Positions 3,895-42,541 of a stretch of 64,000 nt of DNA are shown piece by piece. Numbering within the stretch: position 1 is the first letter of the stretch; each line of letters opens with the position of its first letter. The DNA comes from Escherichia phage ST0: sequence record MF044457; one strand, written 5' to 3'. A program made the position numbers and the translations under genes. The notes below the pieces were generated by a model. It was not told where the DNA came from, made no database searches, and saw only the letters and a list, made by a program, of their open reading frames with translations.

Positions 3895-4527
3895 ATGTCT
3901 AAAGTTACTTACATCATCAAAGCTTCTGAAAACGCTCTGAATGAAAAAACTGCTGCAATAATGGTTTATATCATTAAGAACAACTTCACCACTGCTGCCA
4001 ATGTCCGTGAAGCTCTGGAAGCGGAATACAATGCATCGGTTGTTAACTCTAACATTGGTGTATTGATTAAGAAAGGTTTAGTCGAAAAATCTGGTGATGG
4101 ACTTATAGCAACAGGCGAAGCAATGGATATTATCCAAAAAGCTGCAGACCTCTTTGCCCAAGAAAATGCTCCAGAACTTCTTCAGAAACGTAACACTAGA
4201 AAAGCACGTGGAGTTACTCCTGAAATGCATGAATTAGCAAACTTTGTTTTTGAAAATATTAAAGATAAAGTTGAAGTTAAAGAAATTGGTGAAAACCGTA
4301 GTAACTTGGAAGTTCGATTTGCAAAACGAGTTCTAGGTATTCGTCAGATCGAAATTCGTCGAAATGGTTCTCTTAGAATCTTTGCATACAACATGTCAGA
4401 AACCGAATCAAAGCTGTTTACTTCTCTTGAAAATGATGTTAAGATTAAGATCGGTGGTAAATATACTTACATTGACTTCCCTAATGTGTCCAAAGAAATC
4501 ATTACCCTTGTAACTAACGTACTGTGA
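3895..4527 (+). CDS. motA: middle-transcription activator MotA
   Basis: 210 aa; recalled T4 MotA similarity (MSKVTYIIKAS...NSNIGVLIKKGLVEKSGDGLI...AQENAPELL). Confidence 0.93.
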   Translation: MSKVTYIIKASENALNEKTAAIMVYIIKNNFTTAANVREALEAEYNASVVNSNIGVLIKKGLVEKSGDGLIATGEAMDIIQKAADLFAQENAPELLQKRNTRKARGVTPEMHELANFVFENIKDKVEVKEIGENRSNLEVRFAKRVLGIRQIEIRRNGSLRIFAYNMSETESKLFTSLENDVKIKIGGKYTYIDFPNVSKEIITLVTNVL

Positions 4528-4537
4528 GGAATACATA

Positions 4538-4882
4538 ATGAATAAGCTGAATATTATTAACGAACTTCGTAAATGTGCAGAACCTACTCAGGAAGGATGG
4601 GATATTTGGTACCACGGGGCTTATCTTGGAACTATAGTTAAAGTTAAAGCTGGGTTATATTTAATTATTCGCGAAAATTCTGAATTCCCTAATGGAGTAG
4701 CTCCTGGCGGTATACGTAAAAACTTTATGGCAGCGATCAGTTCATTTGTTGATGCCGCTTACGAAATCTATAAAGAAGATTATAAAGAATATCAGCAGTC
4801 ACAACCGGTTATTCGTTCGATTGGTGTAAATAAACAAGCACAAAAATCTATTTGGCAACGTATTAAGGAATGGTTTAAATGA
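4538..4882 (+). CDS. hypothetical protein (114 aa)
   Basis: ORF with SD; accessory island between motA and asiA. Confidence 0.5.
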
Positions 4883-36106: not shown

Positions 36107-36721
36107 ATGTTTAAAGTTAATACTTTTTATAAAATGAATTTTAAAAATGGGGATATTACTCCACGCCTTAAAAACATGTTCTCATATGATCTTATCGAGC
36201 CTTTTGAAGTTTTAGAAGTTACTGATGCCGGCTCGGTTTGTGAAATTAGAACGTCTGAAGGTAAAATTTATCAGGCTGGTGTTGGTAAATTCAGTAATTG
36301 TTTTACTTTAATATTCTCGACTGATTTAGATGAGCATTTTATTGAATGTCCTAACCCTAAGGTCCATGAAGTTCCACAACAAGAAACTAAGAAAAATGGC
36401 CCGCACGAATATACGAAGGTTGAAACTCCTCACGGCGTGATGTGGCGACATAACTCTCCTTTTGGAAGTAAAGGAACATTTGCTCAACTGGCTAAGCCCT
36501 ACGACGATGAAAAATATGTAGTAGTCCTTTTATCTGAACAGGGTACTCAAGACCGTGGATGCCAACGTTCCGGTTTATTGAGTGAACTCGAAGCTCATAA
36601 CCGAGCACGTGAATTCGTTGAGAAAAATCCTGGTTCTGAAGCTCTAGTCATGAAAGCAATTACTCAATATATCACTGCTCAACCTGTTGTTCATCCGGTA
36701 GAAATTAATTTCATTAAGTAG
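36107..36721 (+). CDS. hypothetical protein (204 aa)
   Basis: ORF with SD GAGGAA. Confidence 0.5.
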   Translation: MFKVNTFYKMNFKNGDITPRLKNMFSYDLIEPFEVLEVTDAGSVCEIRTSEGKIYQAGVGKFSNCFTLIFSTDLDEHFIECPNPKVHEVPQQETKKNGPHEYTKVETPHGVMWRHNSPFGSKGTFAQLAKPYDDEKYVVVLLSEQGTQDRGCQRSGLLSELEAHNRAREFVEKNPGSEALVMKAITQYITAQPVVHPVEINFIK

Positions 36722-36975: not shown

Positions 36976-37177
36976 ATTAATCCAGAAATTGTTAGGCACG
37001 GAAATGGTCGAAGTTACTTATCGTGTGACTGACTGCTCGCCTATTCATCCACAGGATGAACCGTATATCAAGACAATTAAAATGCTTAAAAATGACGGTG
37101 GTTTATCCATTGAAGACCGTCTGCCTAGTTACGGTCATTGGGCTGATGTTGAAATTATAAGTGTTAAAGATGTCTGA
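36965..37177 (+). CDS. hypothetical protein (70 aa)
   Basis: Short ORF overlapping its neighbours. Confidence 0.4.
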   Translation: MLNKLIQKLLGTEMVEVTYRVTDCSPIHPQDEPYIKTIKMLKNDGGLSIEDRLPSYGHWADVEIISVKDV

Positions 37178-37628
37178 ATTAGAAATAAGAAGTAATTTCA
37201 AGTGGCCGTCATGTGCATTAAGTAACTTTGCTCAATGGCCTTTTGTTATGGATGGTATTCAATTCGGAGGTCTTGAAGGATTTCTCCAAGGATGTAAGGT
37301 GAAAAATGTTGAACAACAAAGACGTATATTTGGGCTGTCAGGTCTGGCCGCACAGCAAGCTGGAAGGTCTTATGCAAGAGCTCAGGACCGTGGGACTCTC
37401 TTCTGGTTAGGAGTTCCATTTTCAAGATACTCTGAAGCGTGGAAAGAATTATACACAAATGCATATTTTGAAGCCGCGATCCAAAACAAGGGGTTTCGCG
37501 ATGCCTTACAAGCCTCTAAAGGAAAAATTTTGAAGCACAGCATGGCCAGCCACCTAACAAAAGATGATACAATATTAACCGAAGCCGAATTTATTGATGT
37601 GTTAAACCTATTAAGAGACTCTTTATGA
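37161..37628 (+). CDS. NADAR (YbiA/DUF1768)-like protein
   Basis: 155 aa; N-terminal motif SNFAQWPF.MDG..F...EGFLQ..K resembles the YbiA-family signature (SNFA.WP...DG); motif-level assignment only. Confidence 0.5.
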   Translation: MLKMSELEIRSNFKWPSCALSNFAQWPFVMDGIQFGGLEGFLQGCKVKNVEQQRRIFGLSGLAAQQAGRSYARAQDRGTLFWLGVPFSRYSEAWKELYTNAYFEAAIQNKGFRDALQASKGKILKHSMASHLTKDDTILTEAEFIDVLNLLRDSL

Positions 37629-38440
37629 AGCCTACTATTTTGACTGATATTGATGGTGTATGTTTAAGCTGGCAATCTGGACTTCCTTATTTTGCCCAAA
37701 AATATAATCTTCCATTAGAACATATTTTAAAAATGATTCAGGACGAAAAATTTATTTCTCCTGGTAAACTGTTCAATACCGACGATAACCTTGGTAAACA
37801 ATTAATAGAAAAATATAATAGCTCTGATTTTATTCGTTACTTAGCGCCTTATTCGGATGCTCTTCGAGTTATCAATAAACTAAAAGAAGACTATAATTTT
37901 GTAGCCGTGACGGCGCTAGGTGATTCAATTGATGCTCGATTGAATAGACAATTTAATTTGAATGCTTTGTTCCCAGGCGCTTTCTCTGAAGTAATGATGT
38001 GTGGTCATGATTCTTCAAAGGAACAATTATTTGAACTAGCTAAAACAAAATATAACGTGATTTGTTACGTTGACGATTTAGCTCATCACTGTGACCATGC
38101 AGCAGAAATTCTTAATGTACCGATTTATTGGTTGGCTCGTGGTGAACGTGATGCCATTCCTCGTACTGCACAACGTGTACACACGTGGGATGATATTGAA
38201 TCTCGATTGGTTCCGCCAGAGCATAATTCAGATTCAGATCGTGAAGACCTTTTAAAACGATTGGCAGATTTGCTTAAAGAATCTGGTGCAACAAGTCCAG
38301 GTGCATGGCCTAATCAAATTGGCACTCCGTCGAATCCGTATACCTGGCGAAACCAAGGACCAACCGATATGCAGCCATGGTGGACGATTCAAAACTTTCC
38401 TTTAGATTCGTCCAAATGGACTTGGTCTATAAATTGTTAA
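37625..38440 (+). CDS. HAD-superfamily hydrolase-like protein (possible nucleotidase/phosphatase)
   Basis: 271 aa; N-terminal HAD motif I (ILTDIDGV) and a later acidic DD motif (YVDDLAHH); ATGA-coupled to the NADAR-like gene. Confidence 0.5.
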   Translation: MKPTILTDIDGVCLSWQSGLPYFAQKYNLPLEHILKMIQDEKFISPGKLFNTDDNLGKQLIEKYNSSDFIRYLAPYSDALRVINKLKEDYNFVAVTALGDSIDARLNRQFNLNALFPGAFSEVMMCGHDSSKEQLFELAKTKYNVICYVDDLAHHCDHAAEILNVPIYWLARGERDAIPRTAQRVHTWDDIESRLVPPEHNSDSDREDLLKRLADLLKESGATSPGAWPNQIGTPSNPYTWRNQGPTDMQPWWTIQNFPLDSSKWTWSINC

Positions 38441-38449
38441 GGGTTAATT

Positions 38450-38719
38450 ATGTTTGTAGTTCATGATATTACAGATGGCAAAAACACAACGCGTGACTAC
38501 GGTCACGTTAACATGTTCTTTAGAGACTGGCCAATGTTTCGTTCAGTAAAAGACGCAGAAATATTTAAAGAGTGTGTTGAACAAGGGTTCATCTACATTT
38601 CAGAATATTATGTTGAAGGACTCGGTAAATGGATTACCACTTATCAGAAAACGCTGAAATCGCTTCTAGATGAAGTGGCTTATAATAGAACCGTAACCAA
38701 AATCGAGGATATCAAATGA
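38450..38719 (+). CDS. hypothetical protein (89 aa), 30.1 position
   Basis: ORF directly upstream of and overlapping the ligase start. Confidence 0.45.
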   Translation: MFVVHDITDGKNTTRDYGHVNMFFRDWPMFRSVKDAEIFKECVEQGFIYISEYYVEGLGKWITTYQKTLKSLLDEVAYNRTVTKIEDIK

Positions 38720-40209
38720 TTTTAGATATTTTAAACCAAATAGCTGCGATCGGTTCTACTAAAACAAAACAGGAAATCCTTAAGAAAAATAAGGACAACA
38801 AATTACTTGAACGTGTATATCGTTTAACGTATGCACGTGGCATTCAGTATTATATTAAGAAATGGCCGGGGCCAGGTGAAAGGTCTCAAGCGTATGGCCT
38901 TCTTGAATTAGATGACATGTTGGATTTTATTGAGTTCACATTGGCCACTCGTAAACTCACTGGTAATGCAGCAATTAAAGAGCTCATGGGTTATATCGCC
39001 GACGGTAAACCTGATGATGTTGAAGTACTACGCCGTGTAATGATGCGAGACCTTGAAGTAGGTGCTTCAGTGTCTATCGCGAATAAGGTATGGCCTGGAC
39101 TTATTCAATTGCAACCACAGATGTTAGCATCTGCATATGATGAGAAATTGATTACTAAAAATATTAAATGGCCTGCATTTGCTCAATTAAAAGCCGATGG
39201 TGCTCGTTGTTTCGCTGAAGTTCGCGATGATGGTGTTCAATTCTTTTCTCGCGCTGGTAATGAATACCATGGTCTTACTCTATTAGCGGATGAACTAATG
39301 GAAATGACTAAAGAAGCTCGTGAAAGACACCCTAATGGGGTTTTAATCGACGGCGAATTAGTTTATCATTCATTTGATATTAAAAAGGCCGTGAGCTCAG
39401 GAAATGACCTGTCGTTCTTATTTGGTGATAATGAAGAATCCGAAGAAGTACAGGTTGCAGACCGTAGCACTTCAAATGGTTTAGCAAATAAATCTCTTCA
39501 AGGGACTATTTCTCCTAAAGAAGCGGAAGGTATGGTTCTTCAAGCCTGGGACTATGTTCCTTTAGATGAAGTCTATTCTGATGGCAAAATTAAAGGTCAG
39601 AAATACGATGTTCGTTTTGCTGCTCTTGAAAATATGGCTGAAGGCTTTAAACGAATTGAACCTATCGAAAACCAGTTAGTTCGTAATCTTGACGAAGCTA
39701 AAGTGGTTTATAAAAAATATGTTGACCAAGGCCTTGAAGGTATTATCCTTAAAAACCGTGATTCATATTGGGAAAACAAACGCTCTAAGAACCTAATTAA
39801 ATTTAAAGAAGTTATTGATATCGCTTTAGAAGTTGTAGGATACTATGAACACTCTAAAGACCCTAACAAATTAGGTGGTGTCGAACTCGTATCACGTTGT
39901 CGTCGTATTACAACCGATTGTGGTTCAGGGTTTAAAGATACAACTCATAAAACAGTTGACGGTGTAAAGGTTCTTATTCCTTTAGACGAGCGTCATGATT
40001 TAGACCGTGAACGATTAATGACAGAAGCCCGTGAAGGTAAATTAATTGGACGTATTGCTGATTGTGAATGTAATGGTTGGGTTCATTCTAAAGGACGTGA
40101 AGGCACTGTAGGTATTTTCCTTCCAATTATTAAAGGGTTCCGTTTTGATAAAACAGAAGCGGATTCGTTTGAAGACGTATTTGGACCGTGGTCCCAGACA
40201 GGTTTATAA
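38716..40209 (+). CDS. 30: ATP-dependent DNA ligase gp30
   Basis: 497 aa; adenylation motif KADGARC; size and synteny as T4 gp30 (487 aa). Confidence 0.93.
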   Translation: MILDILNQIAAIGSTKTKQEILKKNKDNKLLERVYRLTYARGIQYYIKKWPGPGERSQAYGLLELDDMLDFIEFTLATRKLTGNAAIKELMGYIADGKPDDVEVLRRVMMRDLEVGASVSIANKVWPGLIQLQPQMLASAYDEKLITKNIKWPAFAQLKADGARCFAEVRDDGVQFFSRAGNEYHGLTLLADELMEMTKEARERHPNGVLIDGELVYHSFDIKKAVSSGNDLSFLFGDNEESEEVQVADRSTSNGLANKSLQGTISPKEAEGMVLQAWDYVPLDEVYSDGKIKGQKYDVRFAALENMAEGFKRIEPIENQLVRNLDEAKVVYKKYVDQGLEGIILKNRDSYWENKRSKNLIKFKEVIDIALEVVGYYEHSKDPNKLGGVELVSRCRRITTDCGSGFKDTTHKTVDGVKVLIPLDERHDLDRERLMTEAREGKLIGRIADCECNGWVHSKGREGTVGIFLPIIKGFRFDKTEADSFEDVFGPWSQTGL

Positions 40210-40453: not shown

Positions 40454-42541
40454 ATGTCTGAACAATTAAATGAAGTGTTTGAATCTGAAGGCAGTCTTCC
40501 TGTCGTCAATTTGAACCCTAAAGCTAAAGTTCCACAAGTCTGGAAAATTGGTGATATCGATACAAACATCGTAGTTCGCTTATTCTCTTACCTTTCTGAA
40601 GGCGATGCTGTAAAACAAGTTAAACTTGGCGACAAATACGCCCATGTTGTTATTATGAGTCTGTCTGAAAAGGGTAATCTCGCTGAATTGAAAAATGGCC
40701 TTGGTCCTGCTCCTATTGATGCAATCAACACTATTTTCAATACAGTATATGAACAGGTTAAAGCTCTTCGTATGGATGCAGTTCTGTTCCGGTTCCCTAC
40801 CAAGAAATTGAAAGGACGTGGACAACAGCTTCAAACTCTTCTTGCTCGTTTAGTTTCTACTAAAACTGGCGGTCGTTTTAAAGTATTGTCAGCAATGTAT
40901 CAATTCACAGGTAAACACACCTATGTGATGATGGTTCGTAAAAATGCCAACATTGAAGATATTAAAGGCATCCCTAACATTAACACAGAGTTGTACACGA
41001 AAGTAGATTCTGATGTTGGCGAAGTTTATGTGAGTAAAAAGACTGGCGAAAAGGTCACCAAAGAAACGGCTATCGCTGGTTCTATTGCTGCTGTAGAAGA
41101 AAAACGTAAAGATAAGCCTGTTATTGCTCGTACTAAAATTTCTCGTCGTGCTATTGCAGCAAGTCAATCTTTAGAAGCTGACCGACAAGAAGGTGAGTTA
41201 TTCCAGAAATACGAAAATTCTGCTAAAGAAGTTAGTGGCCCAGCTACAGCCGAATTACTTCCTGAAGCATATGAAATCGTACTAGCCCAAGCATCGTCCA
41301 CAGCAAAAGGCACTTTAGTTGCTGATATCGAAAATAAGATTTATAATCGTATTGATGAATCCTTTAAATTTGCTGATGAAGTTTCTTATGGTAGTGTTAT
41401 TAAGCCGACTTTAGAAAAGTTTGCTAAGAAAATTAAAACTGAAAAAACAACATCTGTTAAAGCATTAGCCGCTTTTGTTGAAGCTGCAAACGAAATTGCA
41501 GACTCTATTAGAGACGAATGGTTTGAAGATTTTAGACGTGATAATTTCCAACTGCCTGACGATGTTTTAGCTGAAGTATCTGAAAGAACTTGGAAACAAC
41601 GTAAATCAGCGTTCTTGTCTAATGTGATGTATACTTATGCACGAGAATCGGCTAGAGGCACCTTTAATATAACAATGAATCGGGACCCTAAACAATACTC
41701 TGTTGCTGAAAAACGAGCTATTCGTGAATATGCCTCTTCTGCGTATACCGATATCAATAATATGTTGTTAGGTCGTTATAAACCAGATTTTTACGATGTT
41801 GCAGATGAAGATGAAGTTAAACGCGCTATTGATGGTCTTGATTCGGCGTTTTTAAATGGAGACCGTTTACCTGAAGGACTAACGTTATATAGAGCTCAGT
41901 CTATCAGAATGCCTATTTACGAAGCAATGGTTAAAAATAAGGTATTCTACTTCAGAAACTATGTTTCCACTTCACTAGCTCCTATTATTTTCGGTGGGTT
42001 TAAAGAGAACGTTGCCCTTGGACTTGCTCCTGAAGAAGTTCGCAAAGAGCTTAACATTGACAATAATGACGAAGGTGTTACTATTTCTCCTAGTCAAGTA
42101 AGAACAGCTATGCATGCACCAGAACAAATCCGTGTTAACGTTGGATGGGCTATTGATGGCGCCCATAAAGTTAACGTGATTTATCCAGGACAGTTGAGTA
42201 ATCACCCTAATGAGCAAGAAATTATTTTGCCTAGAGGCATTCTCTTGCAGATAAATAAAATTACAGATGCGTCATCTGATACTGGTGCAGGTTTAGAATC
42301 CAACCTTAAATTTATTCAAGCTGAAGTCATGTCCTCAGACCAGTTAGATGAAGCTGTCATTTATGATGGTGATGTTCTCATGGAAACAGGCGAGGTAGTT
42401 GCTATGACAGGTGAAATCGAATCAGATGAGCCGGTATCTTTTGCCTCATTTGTAGAAAAAACTAGTGCACCTAAAGGTTTGAAATTGTTAGCATCTTTAA
42501 TGGATTTAGAATCAGTTCCGTTTAAATTTGTCCAAGGATAG
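40454..42541 (+). CDS. alt: ADP-ribosyltransferase Alt (capsid-packaged, modifies host RNA polymerase)
   Basis: 695 aa (T4 682 aa); synteny 30-alt-54; ADP-ribosyltransferase-like C-terminal half. Confidence 0.85.
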   Translation: MSEQLNEVFESEGSLPVVNLNPKAKVPQVWKIGDIDTNIVVRLFSYLSEGDAVKQVKLGDKYAHVVIMSLSEKGNLAELKNGLGPAPIDAINTIFNTVYEQVKALRMDAVLFRFPTKKLKGRGQQLQTLLARLVSTKTGGRFKVLSAMYQFTGKHTYVMMVRKNANIEDIKGIPNINTELYTKVDSDVGEVYVSKKTGEKVTKETAIAGSIAAVEEKRKDKPVIARTKISRRAIAASQSLEADRQEGELFQKYENSAKEVSGPATAELLPEAYEIVLAQASSTAKGTLVADIENKIYNRIDESFKFADEVSYGSVIKPTLEKFAKKIKTEKTTSVKALAAFVEAANEIADSIRDEWFEDFRRDNFQLPDDVLAEVSERTWKQRKSAFLSNVMYTYARESARGTFNITMNRDPKQYSVAEKRAIREYASSAYTDINNMLLGRYKPDFYDVADEDEVKRAIDGLDSAFLNGDRLPEGLTLYRAQSIRMPIYEAMVKNKVFYFRNYVSTSLAPIIFGGFKENVALGLAPEEVRKELNIDNNDEGVTISPSQVRTAMHAPEQIRVNVGWAIDGAHKVNVIYPGQLSNHPNEQEIILPRGILLQINKITDASSDTGAGLESNLKFIQAEVMSSDQLDEAVIYDGDVLMETGEVVAMTGEIESDEPVSFASFVEKTSAPKGLKLLASLMDLESVPFKFVQG

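Follow-up and report, generated by a model that had tools for sequence, protein, structure and literature searches.

Phage T4 overcomes the DarTG1 defence with its AdfN protein (gp30.3), a NADAR DNA ADP-ribosylglycohydrolase (Johannesman et al., Nat Commun 2025, PMC11825919). T4 AdfN is needed, and also suffices, against DarTG1, its function is abolished by E36A and likewise by K43A, and the purified protein strips ADP-ribose from DNA (PMC11257639/PMC11825919). The substrate is guanine-ADP-ribose on DNA, placed there by the host toxin DarT1 (PMC11825919, PMC11125620); guanosine-ADPr is hydrolysed in vitro by T4 gp30.3 (Cihlova et al., Toxins 2024, PMC11125620), and the phenotype of an adfN deletion is DarTG1-specific. 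As a minimal NADAR-fold enzyme AdfN would cleave, on phage DNA, the N-glycosidic linkage of guanine N2 to ADP-ribose, and erasing in this way the replication-blocking marks written by DarT1 would allow phage growth on DarTG1 hosts. T4 AdfN is no substitute for DarG1 in uninfected cells (PMC11825919); it is active only during T-even infection, and neither in uninfected E. coli nor with T5 or Bas25. T4-GT7, which has unmodified DNA, is still protected by AdfN, and for this reason the authors propose that a phage-encoded T-even factor potentiates the enzyme.

The NADAR core fold is common to AdfN, to the DarT1-associated NADAR antitoxins/DarG1 (e.g. that of Geobacter lovleyi, 8bat) and to E. coli YbiA (2b3w), as are the catalytic Glu and Lys and, according to the literature, the guanine-ADPr hydrolase chemistry. 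AdfN differs in having no N-terminal extension, no toxin gene alongside and, in the last strand, the His that is the hallmark of phage NADARs where YbiA has Glu and DarG1 Asp (PMC11125620, PMC12945103). For the product of the adjoining gene, gp30.2, the closest described proteins are the NT5C deoxyribonucleotidases (cdN 2jao/2i7d, human mdN 1mh9, S. epidermidis 3bwv), which have in common with it a HAD Rossmannoid core, a small helical C1 cap and a DxDGV motif I followed at equal spacing by an aromatic residue. However, identity is only 14-19%, and gp30.2 stays below the Pfam NT5C threshold and has an additional C-terminal extension of ~70 residues that is partly disordered.

Escherichia phage ST0 is a Mosigvirus (an RB69/JS09-like T-even phage), and the two ORFs considered here, found in a 64-kb stretch of its DNA (the window), are orthologues of T4 genes 30.3 and 30.2 inside the conserved cd-31-rIII-30.x-30-alt block (Table 1). 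ORF 1, which counted from a GTG spans 37161..37628 and 155 aa, contains ALSNFAQWPFVMDG; ORF 2 (37625..38440, 271 aa) has the N-terminus MKPTILTDIDGV. Their 4-nt overlap reads 'ctctttATGAagcct', the ATG being at 37625 and the TGA stop occupying 37626-37628. An earlier note on this DNA had described two ORFs with SNFA/WP/DG and DIDGV motifs, joined by an ATGA overlap, and alt some 2 kb further downstream; all of this is borne out here, and the note's remark that the pair might be ordinary 30.x homologues was exactly right. The alt gene is a syntenic neighbour and lies outside the adfN/30.2 pair. The successive junctions 30.5/30.4/adfN/30.2/30.1/ligase measure -11, -8, -4, +9 and -4 nt, the gp30.4 homologue thus overlapping the start of adfN by 8 nt and gp30.1 that of the ligase by 4 nt. 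Scanned for promoters and terminators, the block gave 31 against 24.9 expected, no different from shuffled sequence, and consequently no operon boundaries are drawn.

Table 1. Features of the adfN/30.2 region of phage ST0 (window coordinates)
Feature	Coordinates	Strand	Evidence
gp30.4 homologue, 70 aa	36965..37177	+	phrog_2042, E=4e-34
adfN (gene 30.3), phage NADAR, 152 aa	37170..37628	+	PF08010, E=1.9e-69
gp30.2 catalytic core, aa 1-200, predicted HAD-superfamily phosphatase	37625..38224	+	motifs, AF2, Foldseek
gp30.2 C-terminal extension, ending in the stop codon	38225..38440	+	pLDDT, homologue comparison, composition
gp30.1 (DUF3045), 89 aa, between 30.2 and ligase	38450..38719	+	PF11243, E=9.9e-27; phrog_2054
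gene 30, ATP-dependent DNA ligase	38716..40209	+	PF01068, E=1.9e-26
alt, packaged ADP-ribosyltransferase	40454..42541	+	PF03496 (ADPrib_exo_Tox), E=6.6e-28

The frame that the earlier note gave for the 155-aa ORF stands and its GTG start does not: translation almost certainly begins at the ATG at 37170, 9 nt further on, to give 152 aa, since the T4 30.3 annotation is also 152 aa, the published T4 30.3 constructs begin at ATGTCTGAG (MSELEIRSN), and the ST0 and T4 proteins align end to end without a gap. In this alignment 147 of 152 residues are identical (97%), and the two proteins agree in length, start, genomic slot and the 4-nt overlap with 30.2. The five substitutions, at positions 11, 89, 120, 125 and 128 (K/R, E/P, I/V, M/I, H/G), touch none of the known catalytic positions; E36, K43 and the phage-specific His at position 123 are all present in ST0 and are invariant across 46 homologues. 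Pfam PF08010 (Phage_30_3) matches ST0 AdfN with 232.2 bits, the cut-off being 36, over profile positions 1-138 of 138, and the general NADAR family PF08719 is also matched by 17 of the 46 family members. The AF2 model (pLDDT 94.1, pTM 0.89), computed here together with the motif, orthology and synteny analyses, retrieves from the PDB with Foldseek 2b3w YbiA first (E=4e-5), 8bau second and 8bat third, all of them NADARs, and beyond these three no PDB match with E below 1; a PADLOC search gave no match. The identification of ORF 1 as the NADAR-fold N-glycosidase AdfN, which the earlier note had anticipated as NADAR-like, is thus supported by profile, catalytic residues and predicted fold.

For its activity and role we rely on the literature on the 97%-identical T4 protein, through which the function of ORF 1, DNA de-ADP-ribosylation against DarTG1, would already be known; the ORF thereby gains a function with an experimental grounding. 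The Mosigvirus background calls for a further comparison. The AdfN allele of the type species RB69 is inactive, being frameshifted with loss of the C-terminal helix. The extra T of RB69 (alignment column 411) is absent from ST0 adfN, which reads through to ...LNLLRDSL as in T4 with the C-terminal helix intact. With an intact allele, ST0 is predicted to resist DarTG1, unlike RB69.

The motifs and the model show ORF 2, gp30.2, to be a HAD-fold protein in which no catalytic motif is missing: D8-I-D10-G-V makes up motif I, T96 motif II, K132 motif III and D150-D151 motif IV. Conservation in an alignment of 40 sequences is complete at D8, D10 and K132 and at least 90% at T96, D150 and D151; D8, D10 and D151 are invariant as well among 47 remote relatives. 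In the AF2 model the core (pLDDT above 90) is a HAD Rossmannoid domain with a C1 cap inserted after motif I, helical and ~70 residues long (about aa 15-86). The C-terminal extension consists of one helix and then a disordered Trp/Pro/Ser/Asn-rich tail (pLDDT below 50 at residues 227-271), which varies between genera and is missing from many homologues of ~200-220 aa. Direct sequence searches (PDB, Pfam, NCBIfam, PADLOC) gave only sub-threshold HAD/NT5C hints or nothing, so that the assignment required structure prediction and a profile of the remote relatives. No HAD model of Pfam or NCBIfam scores above its cut-off (HAD_2 16 bits against 23.8, TIGR01428 12.7 against 125), and membership is argued from fold and motifs because sequence models alone miss the protein; the HAD-like label of the earlier note accordingly holds for the predicted fold and the four motifs, with the Pfam/NCBIfam cut-offs not reached.

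The best Foldseek matches of gp30.2 are mouse cdN 2jao (E=4e-8) and then 3bwv, with other HAD classes close behind, so that the likeness to deoxyribonucleotidases is not exclusive. Searched against the PDB, the remote-relative profile has its best match with 3bwv over the full length (E=1e-5), followed by the pyrimidine nucleotidase Sdt1/SSM1 and then by mitochondrial dNT (mdN). All four HAD motifs line up with those of 3bwv, and the position of the Phe after motif I in cdN is taken in the alignment by the near-invariant W16. Pfam NT5C (PF06941) does not match ST0 gp30.2 at E<=1 and matches 7 of the 40 close homologues weakly (best E=0.003); among the remote relatives it is the most frequent Pfam family (20/47, best E=4e-10). 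Genes of these relatives are found beside DNA ligase and UvsY, overlapping a dCMP deaminase gene, or near deoxynucleoside kinase, UDG and RecA. On the basis of the nearest relatives and of these gene contexts in the wider family, we infer that the most likely substrate of gp30.2 is a small nucleotide-like molecule, which would make it a 5'(3')-(deoxy)nucleotidase; the protein would be a Mg2+-dependent, C1-capped HAD phosphomonoesterase and would count among the DNA/nucleotide-metabolism neighbours of the ligase gene. Knock-down of T4 30.2 causes no fitness defect in the laboratory, and a core role in nucleotide metabolism is therefore not evident. A literature search on gp30.2, phage NT5C/HAD nucleotidases and HAD counter-defence proteins found nothing. 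The protein is near-universal in T4-like phages, better conserved than the adjoining ligase, keeps its catalytic motifs and is dispensable in the laboratory; determining its substrate would supply a missing entry in the T4 gene map. A gp30.2 paralogue of Vibrio phage K575 lies near a nicotinamide phosphoribosyltransferase gene.

How the two genes relate to each other, to the ligase and to alt was examined in 77 related loci carrying a 30.2 homologue. The 30.2 gene is most consistently linked to the ligase gene rather than to adfN: in 72 of the 77 loci the ligase follows downstream on the same strand (within 400 nt in 64), whereas adfN immediately precedes 30.2 in 19, is separated from it by 100-1200 nt in 18 and does not occur within 6 kb in 40. 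In Straboviridae the two genes are near-universal (1438 and 1509 phage records), and they can be about 100 kb apart, as in Aeromonas phage avDM7. The NADAR-HAD adjacency is not conserved beyond the T-even, Morganella and Acinetobacter phage lineages; at remote loci an HAD gene is found within 4 kb of the NADAR gene in 0/6 and a NADAR gene within 4 kb of the HAD gene in 0/9. A recurring NADAR-HAD module is rejected on these counts, and the dedicated glycohydrolase plus phosphatase pair that the earlier note had put forward is not supported. The 4-nt overlap to which the note drew attention is real; no T-even locus examined departs from it, nor does Morganella phage MP1. It is not a special signal, however: a crude ORF census of the window counts 58 adjacent plus-strand pairs, of which 28 overlap, 9 through ATGA, and since overlaps are so common in the ST0 genome this one is discounted as a sign of partnership.

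The reading that we favour, and hold to be probable, is that the ORFs are the T4 30.3 and 30.2 orthologues, with AdfN acting against DarTG1 and gp30.2 as a HAD phosphomonoesterase, likely a nucleotidase, that has no obligate partner in AdfN or Alt. We infer the independence of gp30.2 from AdfN, and the T-even cofactor suggested by the AdfN authors means that it is not proven. Could gp30.2 itself be that factor, needed by AdfN in vivo and coupled to it for a fixed proportion, so that NADAR and HAD form a two-component anti-DarT system? As a cofactor it would stabilise AdfN, localise it (e.g. through the disordered tail) or clear the small-molecule product, and the coupling would account for AdfN's failure when cells are uninfected or the phage is not a T-even. 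The confinement of AdfN activity to T-even infection and the overlap kept throughout the T-evens are consistent with this, as is the fact that the gp30.2 of RB69, a phage fully rescued by ectopic AdfN, is intact and shares 98% identity with that of ST0; and between ST0 and T4 it is AdfN (97%) and the 30.2 core (84%) that are best conserved of the block, where the neighbours show 44-65% amino-acid identity. We nevertheless consider it improbable, because most other Straboviridae keep both genes without adjacency, remote NADAR and HAD loci do not pair, overlapping junctions are generic in ST0, and a pure scaffold needs no conserved catalytic site. Moreover gp30.4, or any of ~100 uncharacterised T-even genes, is equally eligible. 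Among the 77 loci gp30.4, which lies upstream and is equally coupled, was detected only where adfN directly adjoins 30.2, a distribution more tightly T-even-restricted than that of gp30.2, and it is an alternative candidate for the potentiating factor. That factor is a question stated explicitly by the field, for which gp30.2 and gp30.4 are thus both candidates.

The constancy of the ligase linkage, which persists in a remote lineage with reversed gene order, would also suit a DNA-end 3'-phosphatase that readies nicks for the adjoining ligase in the manner of the Pnkp phosphatase domain, and 2 of the 47 remote relatives weakly match Pfam HAD_PNKP. In the HAD superfamily a C1 cap is typical of small-molecule enzymes, and Pnkp-type DNA phosphatases are capless. 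The model of gp30.2 has the helical cap over its active site, nucleotidases are its closest matches in both sequence and fold, the match to Pnkp covers only 126-129 core residues, and ST0 already encodes PseT, whose phosphatase domain in T4 is of the capless Pnkp type and acts on polynucleotide 3' ends; an end-processing role for gp30.2 is accordingly unlikely.

Least probable by far, in our judgement, is the role proposed in the earlier note, a two-step pathway in which NADAR and HAD proteins remove and degrade the ADP-ribose adducts made by Alt, for self-protection or salvage. The position of alt on that strand, 2 kb further downstream, made this tempting, a 2022 survey (PMC9503650) noted that NADAR genes in phages frequently belong to the early class and lie near ARTs, and the context of the K575 paralogue might be read in the same sense. 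The published substrate of T4 AdfN is, however, the DarT1-made guanine adduct on DNA and no Alt product (PMC11825919, PMC11125620), and the deletion phenotype is DarTG1-specific. NADAR hydrolysis yields intact ADP-ribose, which offers no terminal phosphomonoester to an HAD phosphatase. At the remote loci the NADAR-HAD pair does not recur outside this synteny block, and alt itself stays in loci without an adjacent adfN; relative to 30.2 it is oriented and spaced differently in different lineages, Acinetobacter- and Aeromonas-type loci having it on the opposite strand. Given the published substrate and the variable synteny, a link of adfN/30.2 to Alt is set aside as unsupported, and with it the Alt story for the gene pair. 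One smaller candidate gene of the region was also set aside: in ST0 a stop codon cuts through ORF 30.3', which is annotated inside T4 30.3.

The upstream ORF of the pair, which the earlier note had called as a 155-aa protein of NADAR type, is adfN, the gene known in T4 as 30.3. The ORF itself is real; its start should be placed at ATG 37170 to give 152 aa, because T4 30.3 is 152 aa long, the published expression constructs of the T4 gene begin ATGTCTGAG, and the T4 and window proteins align end to end (147/152 residues identical). The NADAR assignment holds: the protein scores 232 bits against Pfam Phage_30_3, is assigned to phrog_652, and gives a very confident AlphaFold model (pLDDT 94.1) whose sole significant PDB matches are the three NADARs YbiA (2b3w), a Phytophthora NADAR (8bau) and a Geobacter DarG1-type NADAR (8bat). 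Across 46 aligned homologs, 17 of which also match Pfam NADAR, there is no variation at E36, K43 or H123. The T4 annotation includes an overlapping 75-aa gene, 30.3', in a frame other than that of adfN; its counterpart in the window is interrupted at codon 35 by an in-frame stop, and the T4 30.3' annotation probably does not represent a real gene.

Positions of the features discussed (coordinates are those of the window, or of the named locus)
Feature	Position	Strand	Remark
DAHP synthase, class-I, 330 aa	32155..33147	+	PF00793, E=2e-74
204-aa ORF	36107..36721	+	phrog_17531; no Pfam match
ORF 1 (adfN), as called in the earlier note	37161..37628	+	motif SNFA.WP...DG present
30.3' counterpart, inside adfN	37306..37533	+	
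ORF 2 (gene 30.2)	37625..38440	+	motif DIDGV present
gp30.2 tail	38225..38437	+	disordered
Stretch compared with T4 (L001)	37170..40209		
alt.1, 62 aa	40209..40397	+	Phage_blade (PF24647), E=5e-30
gp30.2 match, Vibrio phage K575 (L081)	3995..4567		
175-aa ORF, non-T-even contig (L093/L094)	2353..2880		weak Phage_T5_dNMPase match

The function of AdfN is settled by the literature. T-even resistance to the host defence DarTG1 was mapped to gene 30.3, which was renamed adfN (Johannesman et al., bioRxiv 2024 PMC11257639; Nat Commun 2025 PMC11825919); the T4 gene is necessary and sufficient, counteraction is abolished by E36A or K43A, and purified AdfN removes ADP-ribose from DNA modified by the DarT1 toxin (PMC11257639, PMC11825919). 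Hydrolysis of guanosine-ADPr in vitro was demonstrated by Cihlova et al., who also gave a His in the last strand as the hallmark of phage NADARs (PMC11125620), and the T4 enzyme is again listed as a G-ADPr hydrolase elsewhere (PMC12945103). The NADAR gene is thus an already known and characterised counter-defence gene. The DarTG1 sensitivity of the type Mosigvirus, RB69, is due to insertion of a single T that truncates its AdfN; the window adfN is free of this insertion, from which the phage is predicted to be DarTG1-resistant.

The downstream ORF encodes gp30.2 (69% identical to the T4 and 98% to the RB69 protein; phrog_420, labelled "unknown function"), so that the more cautious alternative in the earlier note, that both genes are ordinary 30.x homologs, was correct. 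Sequence models recognize gp30.2 weakly (HAD_2 E=0.013, TIGR01428 E=0.09, the cytosolic deoxyribonucleotidase cdN, 2jao, E=0.11). The four HAD motifs (D8xD10GV, T96, K132 and D150-D151) are kept in 40 homologs, all from T4-like phages, and the modelled core (residues 1-190, pLDDT > 90) has a C1 cap, a helical insertion after strand 1; beyond the core come a single C-terminal helix and a tail of pLDDT < 50. Foldseek places mouse cytosolic 5'(3')-deoxyribonucleotidase (2jao) and the deoxyribonucleotidase-like 3bwv at the top. An exhaustive profile search yielded 1166 cluster representatives, most of ~190-215 aa and tailless; a profile of 46 remote members finds 3bwv over its full length at E=1e-5, followed by the pyrimidine nucleotidase Sdt1/SSM1 and mitochondrial deoxyribonucleotidases, and NT5C is the commonest Pfam family among the remote members (20/47, best E=4e-10). 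D8, D10, R108, K132 and D151 do not vary among them, and conservation of W16 is at least 90%; W16 aligns with the cdN Phe after motif I, which stacks on the base in cdN/mdN structures. The HAD assignment of the earlier note is therefore upheld at the level of motifs and model, and gp30.2, predicted to be a HAD phosphatase, is read from its fold, motifs and wider family as a catalytically competent small-molecule phosphatase; we infer the substrate, which would make it most likely a (deoxy)nucleotidase. Literature searches found no publication assigning it a function, and a genome-wide T4 CRISPRi-ART screen lists it as unknown and "Not Fit", i.e. knock-down had no effect. The HAD gene is a catalogued T4-core accessory gene without assigned function.

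The gp30.2 tail is rich in Trp, Pro, Ser and Asn, with short motifs recurring across genera, such as P..[WY]RN..P.D[LM]..[WY][WY], or GTGIEYL..QPT in other phages, and may be a protein-interaction peptide; many genera lack it (proteins of ~200-220 aa). The large records of Vibrio phages K575 (L081) and V07 (L082), the latter classified as Schizotequatrovirus, match gp30.2 in two places each, and a nicotinamide phosphoribosyltransferase gene lies 1.5 kb from the tabulated K575 match.

That adfN and 30.2 form a dedicated functional pair, connected with Alt, had been suggested by their ATGA overlap and by alt starting 2 kb downstream, both of which are present as described. The overlap is real but unremarkable: about half of the adjacent plus-strand ORF pairs in the window overlap, nine by ATGA, and the junctions 30.5/30.4/adfN/30.2/30.1/ligase measure -11, -8, -4, +9 and -4 nt, so that the overlap was rejected as a special sign of pairing. 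Both genes are near-universal in Straboviridae (1438 and 1509 phage records, with near-identical host breakdowns), but in many genera they lie far apart, as in Aeromonas phage avDM7 (133 kb and 27 kb). Among 77 IMG/VR loci encoding gp30.2 relatives, scanned with HMMs, AdfN immediately precedes 30.2 in 19, namely T-evens that share the -4 overlap, Morganella phage MP1 and some Acinetobacter phages; in 18 it lies farther upstream, at 100-1200 nt, and the other 40 have no AdfN within 6 kb. Beyond this synteny, no gp30.2-like gene occurs within 4 kb in six loci with remote gp30.3-type NADARs, nor a NADAR within 4 kb in nine loci with remote gp30.2-like genes. DNA ligase, in contrast, is downstream of 30.2 on the same strand in 72/77 loci, and in 64 within 400 nt, i.e. 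directly adjoining or with only 30.1 between; remote relatives adjoin ligase and UvsY, overlap a dCMP deaminase gene, or have deoxynucleoside kinase, UDG and RecA nearby. Not AdfN but the neighbourhood of ligase and nucleotide metabolism is therefore the stable partner of gp30.2. The connection with Alt is not supported either: alt stays in position at loci where adfN lies somewhere else, its orientation is reversed in other lineages, and it is a syntenic neighbour only.

A narrower association concerns the T-even factor that AdfN is proposed to need in vivo, since T4 AdfN cannot counter DarT1 when E. coli is uninfected and is of very little benefit to T5 or Bas25; T4-GT7, whose DNA is unmodified, is still protected in an adfN-dependent manner (PMC11825919). 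The obvious candidates are gp30.2, coupled downstream and intact in RB69, and gp30.4, coupled upstream and detected, among the 77 loci, only where adfN adjoins 30.2. It is nevertheless quite unlikely that gp30.2 is this putative factor, because the synteny speaks against gp30.2 and AdfN being obligate partners, and there are many other candidate genes.

The genes in this region follow the order of the T4 cd-31-rIII-30.x-30-alt block. The 1.9 kb around the two ORFs matches 696 T-even-type records and shares 97-98% identity with Mosigvirus genomes (Escherichia phages 348Ecol098PP, F2, ATK47 and JS09). Conservation against T4 is very uneven: the best conserved of the block are AdfN, at 97% amino-acid and 89% nucleotide identity, and the gp30.2 core, at 84% amino-acid identity, followed by ligase (65%), 30.1 (56%) and 30.4 (44%). 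The many synonymous differences between the two adfN genes point to strong purifying selection, not recent transfer.

Where T4 and RB69 carry gene 30.6, the window has a 204-aa ORF found also in 348Ecol098PP and an IMG/VR locus (L073). In L093/L094 a gp30.3-type NADAR is preceded, at a distance of 1-4 kb, by DNA ligase and by a 175-aa ORF that is not a gp30.2 relative, giving another region of NADAR, ligase and possible nucleotidase. The mechanical ORF list starts alt.1 at GTG 40188, inside the ligase gene; homology places the start at ATG 40209. The DAHP synthase gene, directly upstream of dCMP deaminase and sharing 1 nt with it, is present in 348Ecol098PP and occupies a slot with no annotated gene in T4 or RB69; it places an enzyme of the aromatic-amino-acid pathway in a lytic T-even phage.
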